Position numbers and translations under genes: made by a program. Below, one piece after another: positions 1 through 6,508 of a stretch of 6,508 nucleotides of DNA (position 1 is the first letter of the stretch; each line of letters starts with the position of its first letter). The notes under the pieces are model-generated. The model saw only the letters and a list, made by a program, of their open reading frames with translations, did not search any database and was not told the origin of the DNA. Source of the stretch: a virus (taxonomy: Duplodnaviria; Heunggongvirae; Uroviricota; Caudoviricetes); the IMG/VR virus record IMGVR_UViG_2531839146_000005; one strand, written 5' to 3'.

Positions 1-248
1 TGGTGGCGATGTCTCTGTGGCATAACCATCCGAAGAAGACGCAGATGCCGTCCATGAATGAAGCCGTTAAACAGATTGAGCAGGAAGTGCTTACCACCTG
101 GCCCGCGGAGGCAATTTCTCATGCTGAAAACGTGGTGTACCGGCTGTCCGGTATGTATGAGTTTGTGGTGAATGATGCCCCTGAACAGGCAGAGGACGCC
201 GGGCCTGCAGAGCCTGTTTCTGCGGGAAAGTGTTCGACGGTGAGCTGA
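1..248 (+). CDS. G: Tail assembly chaperone G, 3' portion (5' end lies upstream of the window); frame-0 product ends at TGA 246-248
   Basis: ORF 3..248 translates to ...SLWHNHPKKTQMPSMNEAVKQIEQEVLTTWP...AGPAEPVSAGKCSTVS, which I recognise as the C-terminal part of lambda gpG. Sits immediately upstream of the T frame and tape measure gene, the conserved synteny. No start codon in the window (the track's leading M is a GTG read in-frame). Confidence 0.9.
   Translation, partial: VAMSLWHNHPKKTQMPSMNEAVKQIEQEVLTTWPAEAISHAENVVYRLSGMYEFVVNDAPEQAEDAGPAEPVSAGKCSTVS
224..230 (+). other. Programmed -1 ribosomal frameshift slippery heptamer G GGA AAG (G-T recoding site)
   Basis: Sequence gcGGGAAAGtg at 222-232. 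In the G frame the codons are GGA (225-227) and AAG (228-230). A -1 slip re-pairs to GGG AAA and continues at GTG (230-232) in the T frame. This is the same heptamer and position (about 6 codons before the G stop) as the known lambda G-T frameshift. Confidence 0.85.
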
Positions 249-664
249 GTTTTGCCCTGAAACTGGCGCGCGAGATGGGGCGACCCGACTGGCGTGCCAT
301 GCTTGCCGGGATGTCATCCACGGAGTATGCCGACTGGCACCGCTTTTACAGTACCCATTATTTTCATGATGTTCTGCTGGATATGCACTTTTCCGGGCTG
401 ACGTACACCGTGCTCAGCCTGTTTTTCAGCGATCCGGATATGCATCCGCTGGATTTCAGTCTGCTGAACCGGCGCGAGGCTGACGAAGAGCCTGAAGATG
501 ATGTGCTGATGCAGAAAGCGGCAGGGCTTGCCGGAGGTGTCCGCTTTGGCCCGGACGGGAATGAAGTTATCCCTACTTCCCCGGATGTGGCGGACATGAC
601 GGAGGATGACGTAATGCTGATGACAGTATCAGAAGGGATCGCAGGAGGAGTCCGGTATGGCTGA
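230..664 (+). CDS. T: Tail assembly protein T frame, expressed as the C-terminal part of the G-T fusion via -1 frameshift; no independent initiation expected
   Basis: Open frame 230..664 in the -1 frame relative to G, translating VFDGELSFALKLAREMGRPDWRAMLAGMSSTEYADWHRFYSTHYFHDVLLDMHF...EGIAGGVRYG, recognisable as lambda gpT. Stop TGA 662-664 overlaps the H start (ATGGCTGA). Confidence 0.88.
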   Translation: MFDGELSFALKLAREMGRPDWRAMLAGMSSTEYADWHRFYSTHYFHDVLLDMHFSGLTYTVLSLFFSDPDMHPLDFSLLNRREADEEPEDDVLMQKAAGLAGGVRFGPDGNEVIPTSPDVADMTEDDVMLMTVSEGIAGGVRYG

Positions 665-3236
665 ACCGGTAGGCGATCTGGTCGTTGATTTGAGTCTGGA
701 TGCGGCCAGATTTGACGAGCAGATGGCCAGAGTCAGGCGTCATTTTTCCGGTACGGAAAGTGATGCGAAAAAAACAGCGGCAGTCGTTGAACAGTCGCTG
801 AGCCGACAGGCGCTGGCTGCACAGAAAGCGGGGATTTCCGTCGGGCAGTATAAAGCCGCCATGCGTATGCTGCCTGCACAGTTCACCGACGTGGCCACGC
901 AGCTTGCAGGCGGGCAAAGTCCGTGGCTGATCCTGCTGCAACAGGGTGGTCAGGTTAAGGACTCCTTCGGCGGGATGATCCCCATGTTCAGGGGGCTTGC
1001 CGGTGCGATCACCCTGCCGATGGTGGGGGCCACCTCGCTGGCGGTGGCGACCGGTGCGCTGGCGTATGCCTGGTATCAGGGTAACTCAACCCTGTCCGAT
1101 TTCAACAAAACGCTGGTCCTTTCCGGCAATCAGGCGGGACTGACGGCAGATCGTATGCTGGTCCTGTCCAGAGCCGGGCAGGCGGCAGGGCTGACGTTTA
1201 ACCAGACCAGCGAGTCACTGACGGCGCTGGTGAATGCCGGTGTGCGTGGTGGTGAGCAGTTTGAGGCGATCAGCCAGAGTGTGGCGCGTTTCTCCTCTGC
1301 ATCCGGTGTGGAGGTGGACAAGGTCGCTGAAGCCTTCGGGAAGCTGACCACAGACCCGACGTCGGGGTTGACGGCGATGGCACGCCAGTTCCATAACGTG
1401 ACGGCGGAACAGATTGCGTATGTTGCTCAGTTGCAGCGTTCCGGCGATGAAGCCGGGGCATTGCAGGCGGCGAACGAGGCCGCAACGAAAGGGTTTGATG
1501 ACCAGACCCGACGCCTGAAAGAGAACATGGGCACGCTGGAGACCTGGGCAGACAGGACAGCACGGGCATTCAAATCCATGTGGGATTCGGTGCTGGATAT
1601 TGGTCGCCCGGACACTGCCCAGGGAATGCTGGAGAAAGCAGAAAAGGCTTTTGATGAGGCGGACAAAAAATGGCAGTGGTATCAGAGCCGGAGCCACCGG
1701 CGCGGTAAAACCTCAGCATTTCTTGCCAATCTCCGGGGAGCATGGGAGGACAGAGCGAATGCGCAACTTGGGCTTTCCGCCGCCACGTTGCAGGCCGATC
1801 TTGAAAAGGCCAGAGAGATGGCAGCAAAGGACTGGGCCGAGTCTGAGGCATCACGGCTGAAATATACCGAAGAGGCGCAGAAGGCTTACGAACGCCTGCA
1901 GACGCCGCTGGAGAAATATACCGCCCGTCAGGAAGAACTGAACAAGGCACTGAAAGACGGGAAAATCCTGCAGGCAGATTACAACACGCTGATGGCGGCG
2001 GCGAAAAAGGATTATGAAGCGACGCTGAAAAAGCCGAAACAGTCCGGCGTGAAGGTGTCTGCGGGCGATCGTCAGGAAGACAGTGCTCATGCTGCCCTGC
2101 TGACGCTTCAGGCAGAACTCCGGACGCTGGAGAAGCATGCCGGAGCGAATGAGAAAATCAGCCAGCAGCGCCGGGATTTGTGGAAGGCAGAAAGTCAGTT
2201 CGCGGTACTGGAGGAGGCGGCACAACGTCGCCAGCTGTCCGCACAGGAGAAATCCCTGCTGGCGCATAAAGATGAGACGCTGGAGTACAAACGCCAGCTG
2301 GCTGCACTTGGCGACAAGGTTACGTATCAGGAGCGCCTGAACGCGCTGGCGCAGCAGGCGGATAAATTCGCACAGCAGCAACGGGCAAAACGGGCCGCCA
2401 TTGATGCGAAAAGCCGGGGGCTGACTGACCGGCAGGCAGAACGGGAAGCCACGGAACAGCGCCTGAAGGAACAGTATGGCGATAATCCGCTGGCGCTGAA
2501 TAACGTCATGTCAGAGCAGAAAAAGACCTGGGCGGCTGAAGACCAGCTTCGCGGGAGCTGGATGGCAGGCCTGAAGTCCGGCTGGAGTGAGTGGGAAGAG
2601 AGCGCCACGGACAGTATGTCGCAGGTAAAAAGTGCAGCCACGCAGACCTTTGATGGTATTGCACAGAATATGGCGGCGATGCTGACCGGCAGTGAGCAGA
2701 ACTGGCGCAGCTTCACCCGTTCCGTGCTGTCCATGATGACAGAAATTCTGCTTAAGCAGGCAATGGTGGGGATTGTCGGGAGTATCGGCAGCGCCATTGG
2801 CGGGGCTGTTGGTGGCGGCGCATCCGCGTCAGGCGGTACAGCCATTCAGGCCGCTGCGGCGAAATTCCATTTTGCAACCGGAGGATTTACGGGAACCGGC
2901 GGCAAATATGAGCCAGCGGGGATTGTTCACCGTGGTGAGTTTGTCTTCACGAAGGAGGCAACCAGCCGGATTGGCGTGGGGAATCTTTACCGGCTGATGC
3001 GCGGCTATGCCACCGGCGGTTATGTCGGTACACCGGGCAGCATGGCAGACAGCCGGTCGCAGGCGTCCGGGACGTTTGAGCAGAATAACCATGTGGTGAT
3101 TAACAACGACGGCACGAACGGGCAGATAGGTCCGGCTGCTCTGAAGGCGGTGTATGACATGGCCCGCAAGGGTGCCCGTGATGAAATTCAGACACAGATG
3201 CGTGATGGTGGCCTGTTCTCCGGAGGTGGACGATGA
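657..3236 (+). CDS. H: Tail tape measure protein (tail length determinant), 859 aa
   Basis: Long ORF starting MAEPVGDLVVDLSLDAARFDEQMARVRRHF, matching the lambda gpH N-terminus. Shine-Dalgarno AGGAGGAG at 643-650, 8 nt before ATG 657. Large Ala/Gln/Arg/Glu/Lys-rich central region typical of coiled-coil tape measure proteins. Gly-rich hydrophobic segment near the C-terminus. Position after G/T matches the conserved order. Confidence 0.95.
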   Translation: MAEPVGDLVVDLSLDAARFDEQMARVRRHFSGTESDAKKTAAVVEQSLSRQALAAQKAGISVGQYKAAMRMLPAQFTDVATQLAGGQSPWLILLQQGGQVKDSFGGMIPMFRGLAGAITLPMVGATSLAVATGALAYAWYQGNSTLSDFNKTLVLSGNQAGLTADRMLVLSRAGQAAGLTFNQTSESLTALVNAGVRGGEQFEAISQSVARFSSASGVEVDKVAEAFGKLTTDPTSGLTAMARQFHNVTAEQIAYVAQLQRSGDEAGALQAANEAATKGFDDQTRRLKENMGTLETWADRTARAFKSMWDSVLDIGRPDTAQGMLEKAEKAFDEADKKWQWYQSRSHRRGKTSAFLANLRGAWEDRANAQLGLSAATLQADLEKAREMAAKDWAESEASRLKYTEEAQKAYERLQTPLEKYTARQEELNKALKDGKILQADYNTLMAAAKKDYEATLKKPKQSGVKVSAGDRQEDSAHAALLTLQAELRTLEKHAGANEKISQQRRDLWKAESQFAVLEEAAQRRQLSAQEKSLLAHKDETLEYKRQLAALGDKVTYQERLNALAQQADKFAQQQRAKRAAIDAKSRGLTDRQAEREATEQRLKEQYGDNPLALNNVMSEQKKTWAAEDQLRGSWMAGLKSGWSEWEESATDSMSQVKSAATQTFDGIAQNMAAMLTGSEQNWRSFTRSVLSMMTEILLKQAMVGIVGSIGSAIGGAVGGGASASGGTAIQAAAAKFHFATGGFTGTGGKYEPAGIVHRGEFVFTKEATSRIGVGNLYRLMRGYATGGYVGTPGSMADSRSQASGTFEQNNHVVINNDGTNGQIGPAALKAVYDMARKGARDEIQTQMRDGGLFSGGGR

Positions 3237-3562
3237 AGACCTTCCGCTGGAAAGTGAAACCCGGTATGGATGTGGCTTCGGTCCCTTCTGTAAGAAAGGT
3301 GCGCTTTGGTGATGGCTATTCCCAGCGAGCGCCTGCCGGGCTGAATGCCAACCTGAAAACGTACAGCGTGACGCTTTCTGTCCCCCGTGAGGAGGCCACG
3401 GTACTGGAGTCGTTTCTGGAAGAGCACGGGGGCTGGAAATCCTTTCTGTGGACGCCGCCTTATGAGTGGCGGCAGATAAAGGTGACCTGCGCAAAATGGT
3501 CGTCGCGGGTCAGTATGCTGCGTGTTGAGTTCAGCGCAGAGTTTGAACAGGTGGTGAACTGA
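3233..3562 (+). CDS. M: Minor tail protein M, 109 aa
   Basis: ORF MKTFRWKVKPGMDVASVPSVRKVRFGDGYSQRAPAGLNANLKTYSVTLSV... with ATG overlapping the H stop (ATGA at 3233-3236). GGAGG at 3221-3225, 7 nt upstream. Length and sequence match lambda gpM. Confidence 0.93.
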   Translation: MKTFRWKVKPGMDVASVPSVRKVRFGDGYSQRAPAGLNANLKTYSVTLSVPREEATVLESFLEEHGGWKSFLWTPPYEWRQIKVTCAKWSSRVSMLRVEFSAEFEQVVN

Positions 3563-4260
3563 TGCAGGATATCCGGCAGGAAACACTGAATGAATGCACC
3601 CGTGCGGAGCAGTCGGCCAGCGTGGTGCTCTGGGAAATCGACCTGACAGAGGTCGGTGGAGAACGTTATTTTTTCTGTAATGAGCAGAACGAAAAAGGTG
3701 AGCCGGTCACCTGGCAGGGGCGACAGTATCAGCCGTATCCCATTCAGGGGAGCGGTTTTGAACTGAATGGCAAAGGCACCAGTACGCGCCCCACGCTGAC
3801 GGTTTCTAACCTGTACGGTATGGTCACCGGGATGGCGGAAGATCTGCAGAGTCTGGTCGGCGGAACGGTGGTCCGGCGTAAGGTTTACGCCCGTTTTCTG
3901 GATGCGGTGAACTTCGTCAACGGAAACAGTGACGCCGATCCGGAGCAGGAGGTGATCAGCCGCTGGCGCATCGAGCAGTGCAGCGAACTGAGCGCGGTGA
4001 GTGCCTCCTTTGTACTGTCCACGCCGACGGAAACGGATGGCGCTGTTTTTCCGGGGCGCATCATGCTGGCTAACACCTGCACCTGGATCTATCGCGGTGA
4101 TGAGTGCGGTTATAATGGCCCAGCTGTCGCTGATGAATATGACCAGCCGACATCTGATATCTCGAAGGATAAATGCAGTAAATGCCTGAGCGGCTGTAAG
4201 TTCCGCAATAACGTCGGCAACTTTGGCGGCTTCCTTTCCATTAACAAACTTTCGCAGTAA
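3562..4260 (+). CDS. L: Minor tail protein L, 232 aa, with C-terminal cysteine cluster (Fe-S binding in the gpL family)
   Basis: ORF MQDIRQETLNECTRAEQSASVVLWEIDL..., same length as lambda gpL. Start overlaps the M stop (TGATG at 3560-3564). Cysteines in ...ANTCTWIYRGDECGYNG...KDKCSKCLSGC... at the C-terminus. Confidence 0.93.
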   Translation: MQDIRQETLNECTRAEQSASVVLWEIDLTEVGGERYFFCNEQNEKGEPVTWQGRQYQPYPIQGSGFELNGKGTSTRPTLTVSNLYGMVTGMAEDLQSLVGGTVVRRKVYARFLDAVNFVNGNSDADPEQEVISRWRIEQCSELSAVSASFVLSTPTETDGAVFPGRIMLANTCTWIYRGDECGYNGPAVADEYDQPTSDISKDKCSKCLSGCKFRNNVGNFGGFLSINKLSQ

Positions 4261-4265
4261 ATCCC

Positions 4266-5009
4266 ATGACAGAGACAGAATCAGCGATTCTGGCGCACGC
4301 CCGGCGATGTGCGCCAGCGGAGTCGTGCGGCTTCGTGGTGAGAACGCCGGAGGGGGAAAGATATTTTCCCTGCGTAAATATCTCCGGTGAGCCGGAGGAT
4401 TATTTTCGGATGTCGCCGGAGGACTGGCTGCAGGCAGAAATGCAGGGTGAGATTGTGGCGCTGGTCCACAGTCATCCCGGTGGTCTGCCCTGGCTGAGTG
4501 AGGCTGACCGGCGGCTGCAGGTGCAGAGTGATTTGCCGTGGTGGCTGGTCTGCCGGGGGGCGATTCATAAGTTCCGCTGTGTGCCGCATCTCACCGGGCG
4601 GCGCTTTGAGCACGGGGTGACGGACTGTTACACGCTGTTCCGGGATGCTTATCATCTGGCGGGGATTGAGATGCCGAATTTTCATCGCGGGGATGACTGG
4701 TGGCGTCACGGCCAGAATCTCTATCTGGATAATCTGGAGGACACAGGGCTGTATCAGGTGCCGTTGTCATCAGCACAACCGGGCGATGTGCTGCTGTGCT
4801 GTTTTGGTTCATCGGTGCCGAATCATGCCGCCATTTACTGTGGTGACGGCGAGCTGCTGCACCATATTCCTGAACAACTGAGCAAACGAGAGAGGTATAC
4901 CGACAAATGGCAGCGACGCACACACTCCCTCTGGCGTCACCGGGCATGGCGCGCATCTGCCTTTACGGGGATTTACAACGATTTGGCCGCCGCATCGACC
5001 TTCGTGTGA
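4266..5009 (+). CDS. K: Tail assembly protein K, JAMM/MPN metallopeptidase domain plus NlpC/P60-like domain; 247 aa from ATG 4266 (alternative internal start at 4410 would give 199 aa)
   Basis: ORF MTETESAILAHARRCAPAESCGFVV...ALVHSHPGGLPWLSEAD...GVTDCYTLF...NHAAIYCG... JAMM motif H-x-H-x7-S-x2-D at residues 68-81 (nt 4467-4508). Upstream E-x-C-G (E19, nt 4320-4331). Candidate NlpC/P60 catalytic Cys121 (nt 4626-4628). ATG 4266 lies 5 nt after the L stop. Confidence 0.88.
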   Translation: MTETESAILAHARRCAPAESCGFVVRTPEGERYFPCVNISGEPEDYFRMSPEDWLQAEMQGEIVALVHSHPGGLPWLSEADRRLQVQSDLPWWLVCRGAIHKFRCVPHLTGRRFEHGVTDCYTLFRDAYHLAGIEMPNFHRGDDWWRHGQNLYLDNLEDTGLYQVPLSSAQPGDVLLCCFGSSVPNHAAIYCGDGELLHHIPEQLSKRERYTDKWQRRTHSLWRHRAWRASAFTGIYNDLAAASTFV

Positions 5010-5578
5010 AAACGGGGGCTGAAGCCATCCGGGCGCTGGCCACACAGCTCCCGGCGTTTCGTCAGAAACTGAGCGACGGCTGGTATCAGGTACGGATTTC
5101 CGGGCGGGACGTCAGCACGTCCGGATTGACGGCGCAGTTACATGAGGTTCTGCCTGACGGCGCTGTGATTCATATTGTTCCCAGAGTCGCCGGGGCCAAG
5201 TCAGGGGGCGTATTCCAGATTGTTCTGGGGGCTGCCGCCATTGCCGGATCATTCTTTACTGCCGGAGCCACCCTTGCAGCATGGGGGGCAGCCATTGGGG
5301 CCGGTGGTATGACCAGTATCCTGTTTTCTCTCGGTGCCAGTATGGTACTTGGTGGTGTGGCGCAGATGCTGGCACCGAAAGCCAGGACGCCCACGGCAGC
5401 AAGTACAGATAACGGCAAACAGAACACCTATTTCTCCTCACTGGATAACATGGTTGCCCAGGGCAATGTTCTGCCCGTTCTGTACGGTGAAATGCGCGTG
5501 GGGTCGCGGGTGGTCTCTCAGGAGATCAGCACGGCAGACGAAGGGGATGGTGGTCAGGTTGTGGTGATTGGTCGCTGA
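4907..5578 (+). CDS. I: Tail assembly protein I, 223 aa; N-terminal ubiquitin-like region ending in Gly-Gly, C-terminal Gly/Ala-rich hydrophobic region
   Basis: ORF MAATHTLPLASPGMARICLYGDLQRFGRRIDLRVKTGAEAIRALATQ..., matching lambda gpI length (223 aa) and sequence. Overlaps the 3' end of K by 103 nt in a different frame, as in lambda. GG at residues 100-101 (nt 5204-5209) followed by VFQIVLGAAAIAGSFFTAGATLAAWGAAIGAGG. Confidence 0.9.
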   Translation: MAATHTLPLASPGMARICLYGDLQRFGRRIDLRVKTGAEAIRALATQLPAFRQKLSDGWYQVRISGRDVSTSGLTAQLHEVLPDGAVIHIVPRVAGAKSGGVFQIVLGAAAIAGSFFTAGATLAAWGAAIGAGGMTSILFSLGASMVLGGVAQMLAPKARTPTAASTDNGKQNTYFSSLDNMVAQGNVLPVLYGEMRVGSRVVSQEISTADEGDGGQVVVIGR

Positions 5579-5595
5579 TGCAAAATGTTTTATGT

Positions 5596-5620
5596 GAAAC
5601 CGCCTCCGGGCGGTTTTATC
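5596..5620 (+). terminator. GC-rich hairpin followed by T-tract in the I-J intergenic region (putative weak intrinsic terminator or RNA stability element)
   Basis: gAAACCGCC (5596-5604), loop tccg (5605-5608), GGCGGTTTt (5609-5617): a perfect 8-bp inverted repeat (5597-5604 with 5609-5616) followed by tttatcgtttat. It sits between the I stop (5576-5578) and the J Shine-Dalgarno (GGAG 5627-5630). Confidence 0.4.
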
Positions 5621-5638
5621 GTTTATGGAGCATGACGA

Positions 5639-6508
5639 ATGGGTAAAGGCGGCAGTAAGGGGCATACCCCGCGCGAAGCGAAGGACAACCTGAAGTCCAC
5701 GCAGCTGCTGAGTGTGATCGATGCCATCAGCGAAGGGCCGGTTGAAGGTCCGGTGGATGGATTAAAAAGCGTGCTGCTGAACAGTACGCCGGTGCTGGAC
5801 AGTGAGGGGAATACCAATATATCCGGCGTCACGGTGGTGTTCCGGGCCGGTGAGCAGGAGCAGACACCGCCGGAGGGGTTTGAATCCTCCGGCTCCGAGA
5901 CGGTGCTGGGTACGGAAGTGAAATATGACACGCCGATCACCCGCACCATTACGTCTGCAAACATCGACCGTCTGCGCTTTACCTTCGGTGTACAGGCACT
6001 GGTGGAAACCACCTCAAAGGGTGACAGGAATCCGTCGGAAGTCCGTCTGCTGGTTCAGATACAACGTAACGGTGGCTGGGTGACGGAAAAAGACATCACC
6101 ATTAAGGGCAAAACCACCTCGCAGTATCTGGCCTCGGTGGTGGTGGATAACCTGCCGCCGCGCCCGTTTAATATCCGGATGCGCAGGATGACGCCGGACA
6201 GCACCACAGACCAGCTGCAGAACAAAACGCTCTGGTCGTCATACACCGAAATTATCGATGTGAAACAGTGCTACCCGAACACGGCACTGGTCGGCGTGCA
6301 GGTGGACTCGGAGCAGTTCGGCAGCCAGCAGGTGAGCCGTAATTATCATCTGCGCGGGCGTATTCTGCAGGTGCCGTCGAATTATAACCCGCAGACGCGG
6401 CAATACAGCGGTATCTGGGACGGAACGTTTAAACCGGCATACAGCAACAACATGGCCTGGTGTCTGTGGGATATGCTGACCCATCCACGCTACGGCATGG
6501 GGAAACGT
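5639..6508 (+). CDS. J: Tail tip / central tail fiber protein J, N-terminal 290 codons (continues past the window end)
   Basis: ATG 5639 with GGAG 8 nt upstream. Translation MGKGGSKGHTPREAKDNLKSTQLLSVIDAISEGPVEGPVDGLKSVLLNSTPVLDSEGNTNISGV... is open to the window end and matches the lambda gpJ N-terminus. Not in the ORF track because no stop codon is reached. Confidence 0.93.
   Translation, partial: MGKGGSKGHTPREAKDNLKSTQLLSVIDAISEGPVEGPVDGLKSVLLNSTPVLDSEGNTNISGVTVVFRAGEQEQTPPEGFESSGSETVLGTEVKYDTPITRTITSANIDRLRFTFGVQALVETTSKGDRNPSEVRLLVQIQRNGGWVTEKDITIKGKTTSQYLASVVVDNLPPRPFNIRMRRMTPDSTTDQLQNKTLWSSYTEIIDVKQCYPNTALVGVQVDSEQFGSQQVSRNYHLRGRILQVPSNYNPQTRQYSGIWDGTFKPAYSNNMAWCLWDMLTHPRYGMGKR

Follow-up and report, generated by a model that had tools for sequence, protein, structure and literature searches.

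The closest described relative of the protein treated here is protein I of phage lambda (gpI), on whose hydrophobic hairpin the relevant published work dates from 2023 to 2026. In the closed lambda tail tip, gpI is resolved from residue 101 onward, and its N-terminal domain is treated as present and unresolved (PMC11101478). The resolved part comprises two helices, H1 and H2, a plug in the lumen of the tube (residues 159-175), and beta strands that run through the gaps of gpJ (PMC11101478, Ge and Wang). In the open state reached after LamB binding, gpI is visible only from residue 167 onward; H1/H2 are simply absent from the map (PMC11101478). Both helices are predicted to be transmembrane by TMHMM, and their insertion into the host outer membrane has been proposed (PMC11101478). 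Xiao et al. modelled residues 135-223 as a trimeric tripod that supports the C-terminal coiled coil of gpH, described beta-sheet augmentation of the C-terminal strands of gpI with gpJ, noted that the stretch 137-GILFSLGASMVLGGVA-152 is highly hydrophobic and might touch the outer membrane, and detected gpI, and not gpK, by mass spectrometry of virions (PMC10721106). In the Ur-lambda study, residues 134-222 were modelled, bound to residues 818-849 of gpH, and the membrane hypothesis was repeated; the in situ tomograms of Ur-lambda cannot resolve gpI (PMC12617516). H2 is modelled in three independent lambda structures from residue 133-135 onward.

Comparable arrangements are found in other tail-like machines. 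In F-type pyocins, the PA0640 plug protein has N-terminal helices that encircle the C-terminus of the tape measure protein (bioRxiv 10.64898/2026.02.24.707460), and the same two predicted transmembrane helices (residues 94-142) have been reported for the F7 pyocin protein (PMC12874032). These proteins resemble gpI in that they plug the lumen as a trimer around the C-terminus of the tape measure and in that their N-terminal part is invisible in maps, but they are about 200 aa long, have a shorter hairpin, and are part of a bacteriocin, which kills, and not of a DNA-delivering virus. [quoted passage not shown] As in lambda, a plug closes the T5 tube and touches the C-terminal coiled coil of the tape measure, and a hydrophobic stretch is stored in the tail. 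In T5, however, this stretch belongs to the tape measure protein itself, the hub protein supplies the plug as one of its domains, and a ubiquitin-like domain is lacking; the likeness is a functional one.

[quoted passage not shown] It shares with the MoaD/ThiS/SAMP/Urm1 proteins the fold, a terminal conserved glycine and a genetic link to a JAB peptidase, and differs from them in that the beta-grasp domain here precedes a structural virion protein, for which cleavage is a prediction.

A lambda-type tail locus and its protein I

The window, by which we mean the whole stretch of DNA analysed, is 6508 bases long and carries lambda-type tail genes in the customary order, including the H-M-L-K-I-J block (Table 1). 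By megablast, it is 97.7% identical to Escherichia phage PhiR68_2 and 95.7% identical to lambda variants over its whole length, and the matching phage records bear the same gene annotation, with I between K (JAB plus NlpC/P60) and J. K and I overlap by 103 nt. Relative to the lambda gene, 26 of the 37 nucleotide differences in I fall at third codon positions, and the differing codons comprise 22 synonymous and 7 non-synonymous ones; this pattern identifies the frame of I as the coding one. Other ORFs overlap it on both strands within 5170-5567; since the substitutions fit the I frame, these ORFs were taken as by-products of GC-rich codons. A terminator and promoter scan of 4800-5800 returned nothing by its own criteria.

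Table 1. Coordinates of the tail genes in the window and of the parts of protein I
Feature	Position	Strand	Remarks
T, 3' end	3-248 and 230-664		ORFs
H	657-3236		859 aa
M	3233-3562		Pfam Phage_min_tail
L	3562-4260		Pfam Phage_tail_L
K	4266-5009	+	247 aa; Prok-JAB and NLPC_P60; predicted processing enzyme for I
I	4907-5578	+	223 aa plus stop; tail tip (assembly/insertion/plug) protein I
Ubiquitin-like beta-grasp domain	4946-5197	+	residues 14-97; ends in the motif P92-x3-G96-A97
Gly100-Gly101	5204-5209	+	dipeptide meant in the initial annotation
Hydrophobic helix H1 region	5210-5299	+	about residues 102-131; invariant G108
Gly-rich turn AGGM	5300-5311	+	residues 132-135; between H1 and H2
Hydrophobic helix H2	5312-5377	+	about residues 136-157; G143-ASMVLG-G150-VAQMLAP; invariant G143 and G150
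Plug segment	5381-5431	+	residues 159-175; lumen closure assigned by homology to lambda gpI (PMC11101478)
C-terminal beta-strand domain	5432-5575	+	residues 176-223; threads between gpJ hub domains (in lambda)
J, start	from 5639 onward		

Residues 1-223 of protein I align to residues 1-223 of lambda gpI, represented by chains of PDB 8IYK, 8IYL, 8K35 and 8XCG (E 3.9e-137), to which 9E7M may be added as a further lambda gpI structure. The protein matches Pfam PF06805 (Lambda_tail_I) over residues 14-97 (E 4.3e-27; 94.8 bits against a gathering cut-off of 23.8) and PHROG 32, 'tail assembly protein', over residues 12-214 (E 9.8e-83). Like its lambda counterpart, it is 223 aa long, is encoded between K and J and has the same domains. 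The two differ by 7 substitutions, namely A65S, T81V, G137S and a patch in the plug (R163T/I164A/Q165A/T166S); H1 is identical, and G137S in H2 is the single change within the hydrophobic segment. Judged by its sequence, the protein belongs to the lambda gpI family by every feature that could be tested.

Run without an alignment, AF2 modelled the protein poorly (mean pLDDT 46), and the model was replaced by one built with a 65-sequence alignment, which was used solely for secondary structure and for the beta-grasp domain. In the latter model, the beta-grasp domain is confident (pLDDT 92-97 over residues 11-90), and with this domain Foldseek retrieved SAMP1 (E 2.1e-4), MoaD, CysO, Urm1 and ubiquitin at target-normalised TM scores of 0.67-0.73, so the ubiquitin-like domain that had been assigned by Iyer et al. 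(PMC1779556), and placed before the hydrophobic segment from the sequence alone, is borne out by fold. Helices are predicted over residues 100-118, 123-127 and 136-155, with no helix over residues 128-135. The hairpin itself has a pLDDT of only 53-64, which is expected because it is a part that folds in a hetero-oligomer.

Composition and conservation of the hydrophobic segment

Translated in the frame of I, positions 5210-5380 give VFQIVLGAAAIAGSFFTAGATLAAWGAAIGAGGMTSILFSLGASMVLGGVAQMLAPK, that is, residues 102-158, which lie directly after G100-G101 and equal the string quoted in the initial annotation plus a final lysine, K158. The 57 residues include 14 Ala, 10 Gly (at 108, 114, 120, 127, 131, 133, 134, 143, 149 and 150), 6 Leu, and 4 each of Val, Ile, Phe and Ser; Gly and Ala together make up 42%, and the terminal K158 is the sole charged residue. 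The longest run free of D, E, K, R and H in protein I covers 59 residues (99-157; 44% Gly+Ala), whereas the longest such run in shuffled versions of the protein averages 22.8 residues (sd 5.9), and 59 was reached in 2 of 20,000 shuffles. The Gly/Ala-rich hydrophobic stretch described after the Gly-Gly in the initial annotation is real and not a chance feature.

Its hydrophobicity is borderline. Kyte-Doolittle averages over 19 residues peak at 1.58-1.64 (residues 100-124) and 1.58 (residues 130-148), around the classical threshold of about 1.6, and approximate sums on a Hessa-type scale, taken over the best 19-residue windows, range from +1.5 to +2.7 kcal/mol. With the former peaks near 1.6 and the latter sums positive, H1 and H2 do not look like classical strong transmembrane segments; published TMHMM runs on lambda gpI call both of them transmembrane (PMC11101478). 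Two other readings of the helices were rejected. Amphipathic helices do not fit hydrophobic moments as low as 0.05-0.20 at a mean hydrophobicity of 0.58-0.67, values that indicate uniformly apolar helices, and a glycine zipper (GxxxGxxxG) does not fit a segment with a single i/i+4 glycine pair (127/131) and other spacings of mostly 6-7 residues.

Searched with phmmer, a set of 1.8 billion cluster representatives yielded 3193 relatives at E <= 0.001, from which conservation was assessed in a sample of 57 full-length representatives with 33-70% identity; the alignment comprised 65 sequences. A charge-free, Gly/Ala-rich stretch occupies the same place in all 57 homologues, with a median length of 54 residues (range 26-82), a median Gly+Ala content of 38% and a median Kyte-Doolittle mean of 1.31. 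G108, G143 and G150 are invariant in the family alignment, and H1 follows the family consensus QIVxGAxLIAAAFxTGGA. Mean column conservation is 0.51 for H1 and 0.56 for H2, compared with 0.46 and 0.54 for the ubiquitin-like and C-terminal domains, respectively; in the latter, F176, N181, G186, P190, G194, G199 and S204 are conserved residues. Across the 65 aligned sequences, the columns of G108, G143, G150, F176, N181, G186, P190, G194 and G199 show at least 90% conservation or full invariance, and all nine residues are present here. The loose parts by the same measure are the plug (0.33) and the turn at 132-137 (0.28), the latter being the least conserved part and differing in length among homologues. 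By this alignment, the hairpin is a conserved, sequence-specific element.

These values bear on an older view. In 2006, the segment was described as a glycine-rich, low-complexity flexible linker between globular domains, a description that agrees with its 42% Gly+Ala and with the variable length of its middle part among homologues. Three invariant glycines, the motifs QIVLGA and GASMxLGGVxQML, and a conservation on a par with that of the folded domains would hardly be expected of a linker, and the segment is helical both in cryo-EM and in the AF2 model, being linker-like only at the turn; we therefore regard this view as scarcely tenable.

Conservation also extends beyond phages. The F-type pyocin plug/THIP proteins (PA0640-like; 25vf_9, 9l9p_A) align through the segment (E ~1e-10, over the C-terminal 122 residues) and share the motifs FQxVLGAA... 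and GASMxLGGVxQMLxP. The order of beta-grasp domain, Gly/Ala hairpin and C-terminal domain, which had been called unusual for a tail assembly factor, recurs in 57/57 divergent homologues and in F-type pyocin proteins; this architecture is not unusual but defines the gpI family.

Storage in the tail tip and a proposed outer-membrane step

The segment is the published H1/H2 hairpin of gpI, for which a resolved structure, a hydrophobic character, a transmembrane prediction and a proposed role have already been reported. As an overall explanation, a conserved hydrophobic helical hairpin of a lambda-type tail tip protein I is probably the right one. The question of whether protein I occurs in mature virions is answered in the affirmative for lambda gpI by cryo-EM and mass spectrometry (PMC11101478, PMC12617516, PMC10721106). 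The term 'tail assembly factor' is accordingly too narrow: in lambda, the C-terminal part, including the segment, belongs to the mature tail tip as a trimer, and the protein does not merely serve assembly.

Following the lambda structures, the tail tip would take in three copies of the C-terminal part of gpI, a step that is shown for lambda and is transferred to the present protein from its near-identity. In the closed tip, H1 and H2 would lie in the lumen beside the coiled coil at the C-terminus of the tape measure protein, the tube would be plugged by residues 159-175, and the C-terminal strands would thread between the hub domains of gpJ. On LamB binding, the plug would open and H1/H2 would leave the stored position, where they are no longer seen in lambda maps. 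The released helices may well then enter the host outer membrane and help to form or anchor a DNA exit channel, a step to which we give slightly better than even weight. A Gly/Ala-rich composition with marginal hydrophobicity would suit a soluble state in the cytoplasm, tight packing in the lumen and later partition into lipid. For the outer-membrane step, the T5 pb2* stretch is, by analogy, the closest functional parallel.

Alternatively, the helices might be a purely buried packing element for the coiled coil and the plug, expelled or disordered after triggering and devoid of a membrane function. In the closed virion the segment does sit in a protein lumen and not in lipid, no density for it has been reported in the nanodisc of the open state (PMC11101478), its hydrophobicity is only marginal, and small residues together with invariant glycines fit tight helix-helix packing. 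Yet packing alone needs no 50-60 charge-free residues, which are nevertheless conserved down to 33% identity; moreover, the residues that follow H1/H2 point to the outer membrane in the open state (PMC11101478), and the 46-residue tape-measure stretch of T5 is placed at the same spot, with density that merges with the nanodisc (PMC10038345). A role confined to packing is thus unlikely, albeit one to be taken seriously.

A different membrane would be involved if the segment were a transmembrane anchor in the producing cell, where I would be an inner-membrane assembly factor and tip assembly would start at the membrane. The two hydrophobic stretches of about 20-25 residues with basic flanks (K98; K158 and R160) and the positive TMHMM prediction (PMC11101478) are what such an anchor would be expected to have. 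However, the same residues are resolved in the lumen of the mature, soluble tail, the protein has no N-terminal signal sequence and its hydrophobic part comes only after a soluble domain of 100 residues, and the approximate insertion free-energy sums are positive, which together make an anchor of this kind very improbable. The membrane association suggested for the segment in the initial annotation hence stands in part: it is plausible in light of TMHMM and of the published proposal (PMC11101478, PMC12617516), but the membrane concerned would be the outer membrane of the next host and not that of the producing cell, the segment being buried in the lumen of the closed virion.

The ubiquitin-like domain, K and a predicted cleavage

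P92 is invariant in the family, and among 64 homologues, G96 is found in 62, G101 in 56 and G100 in 33. By this count, the conserved glycine that closes the ubiquitin-like domain across the family is G96, not the G100-G101 pair. G96, part of the motif P92-x3-G96-[A/S]97, follows the last strand by four residues. The ubiquitin tail has the same four-residue spacing from the last strand to the glycine. Because G96 is better conserved than G100-G101, the predicted cut, if any, may fall at G96/A97 rather than after G100-G101. No gene for an E1-like enzyme was found among the ORFs of the window, and neither a sulphur-carrier nor a conjugation role is indicated.

The candidate enzyme is K, in which Pfam recognizes Prok-JAB at residues 4-98 (E 4.7e-14) and NLPC_P60 at residues 111-224 (E 3.2e-12). 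Its JAMM motif, HSHPGGLPWLSEAD (residues 68-81), is intact, and the upstream Glu is also present. A K-like gene (NlpC/P60 plus JAB region) immediately precedes the I homologue in each of seven distant loci, which supports the functional link between JAB and I put forward by Iyer et al.; the canonical HxHx7[ST]xxD motif is found in 6/7 of these genes. In the literature searched, no experimental demonstration of gpI cleavage by gpK was found. In the mass-spectrometry data tabulated for virions by Xiao et al. (PMC10721106), gpI is represented by a single peptide that covers 9.87% of the protein; this amounts to 22/223 residues and can be matched only to the tryptic peptide at the C-terminus, 202-223. 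No well-behaved peptides of the ubiquitin-like domain are listed there, and gpL, likewise present in three copies, gave eight peptides. This single-peptide pattern is a weak hint in favour of cleavage.

K also sets this locus apart from laboratory lambda. In the latter, a net loss of 1 nt (AT to C at window positions 4399-4400) splits the JAB domain, and as a result K is annotated there as a 199-aa 'C40 family peptidase' with an internal ATG start. The JAB domain is uninterrupted in the window, HK630, ev099, Stx phages and HK97. The lambda strain used for the published structures carries the split-JAB K. Given the split domain, JAB-dependent processing may not occur, or may not be needed, in laboratory lambda.

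Whether the N-terminal ubiquitin-like domain acts as a removable pro-domain, solubilising or targeting the protein and cut by the JAB domain of gpK at G96/A97 or G101, is in our judgement evenly balanced. More specifically, and more tentatively, the domain could be a cleavable intramolecular chaperone that keeps the hairpin soluble until it is locked in the tail tip, after which the JAB domain of gpK would cut at one of these two sites. If so, this would represent a viral maturation step of the ubiquitin-fusion/deubiquitinase type, and laboratory lambda, with its K frameshift inside JAB, would be a naturally occurring partial mutant in this respect. The cleavage idea itself dates from 2006; the intact K here and the split K in lambda offer a ready-made comparison.

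As a finding, the hairpin adds little, having already been described. It nonetheless touches two questions of lambda biology, namely, the conduit by which DNA crosses the outer membrane and the role of two peptidase domains in gpK, a protein that is essential but non-structural, and for both, the conserved residues G108, G143, G150 and G96 provide concrete targets for mutation.

Start, overlap and plug of the tail tip protein gene I

Many database homologs of I begin at the equivalent of Met14 (4946 in the window, against 4907 for the called start), for example, a 210-aa entry with 5268 member sequences (P0012). In addition, several of the cluster representatives matched by phmmer align from residue 14, and residues 1–13 lie outside the Pfam domain and are modeled by AF2 with low confidence. 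Either codon, 4907 or 4946, may be the true start. From the former, I begins 103 nt upstream of the end of K in a different frame, the two genes overlapping at 4907–5009. Several database proteins of 335–389 aa carry both NLPC_P60 and Lambda_tail_I (P0010, P0013, P0015, P0019, and P0020); they would be K–I fusions, a type mentioned by Iyer et al. (PMC1779556), and the entries could be genuine fusions or frameshift errors.

Further downstream, 14 of the 37 nucleotide differences from the lambda I gene are found within 22 bases (5386–5407, I residues 161–167), replacing RIQT of lambda with TAAS at residues 163–166, inside the segment that plugs the tail tube. These differences look like a small mosaic patch. 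Among the phmmer matches to I, P0130 is a gpI in which nearly all Ala are changed to Val, Thr to Ile, and Ser to Leu or Phe, a C-to-T pattern. The 2783 aa of P0167 consist of one degenerate repeat after another of this converted sequence. Both are artifacts of the database rather than real biology; they look like translated lambda control DNA, bisulfite-converted or otherwise deaminated, in public assemblies.

Features of the tape measure protein H and of the I–J interval

The tape measure protein H contains two charge-free runs that resemble the hydrophobic hairpin of I in composition (see table). The first overlaps gpH 116–140, the stretch favored as a possible membrane-spanning region, and the second falls in the glycine-rich region in which the cleavage of gpH to gpH* has been placed, by a protease that is unknown according to the same paper (PMC12617516). 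K, with two peptidase domains, is a candidate for this protease.

Coordinates of features in H, K, and the I–J interval
Feature	Window	Location or counterpart
Charge-free Gly/Ala-rich run 1 of H, 35 residues	993–1097	H residues 113–147
Charge-free Gly/Ala-rich run 2 of H, 35 residues	2757–2861	H residues 701–735
K 5′ part	4266–4420 (indel 4399–4400)	lambda locus L001, 4634–4864
Perfect 8-bp GC-rich hairpin	5597–5616	I–J intergenic (I stop 5578, J start 5639)

The hairpin between I and J reads AAACCGCC-TCCG-GGCGGTTT, and TATCGTTT comes after it. Folding of the 76-nt region gives −27.4 kcal/mol (z = −3.0 against shuffles), and a simple terminator scan did not call the hairpin as a terminator. 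Inside the late operon, the hairpin might act in the manner of a terminator or as an element for RNA stability.

An intact K in the window and a split K in laboratory lambda

[quoted passage not shown] As a result, JAB codons 1–44 of lambda, with the catalytic Glu region AESCGF among them, fall into an ORF of their own of 76 codons, and the annotated K, 199 aa long, starts at an internal ATG. The JAB domain of K is intact in HK630, ev099, Stx phages, and HK97. The stf frameshift is a known lesion of laboratory lambda, and the indel in K may be a second one in the same manner. It is relevant to the question of whether JAB processing happens in the strain used for cryo-EM.
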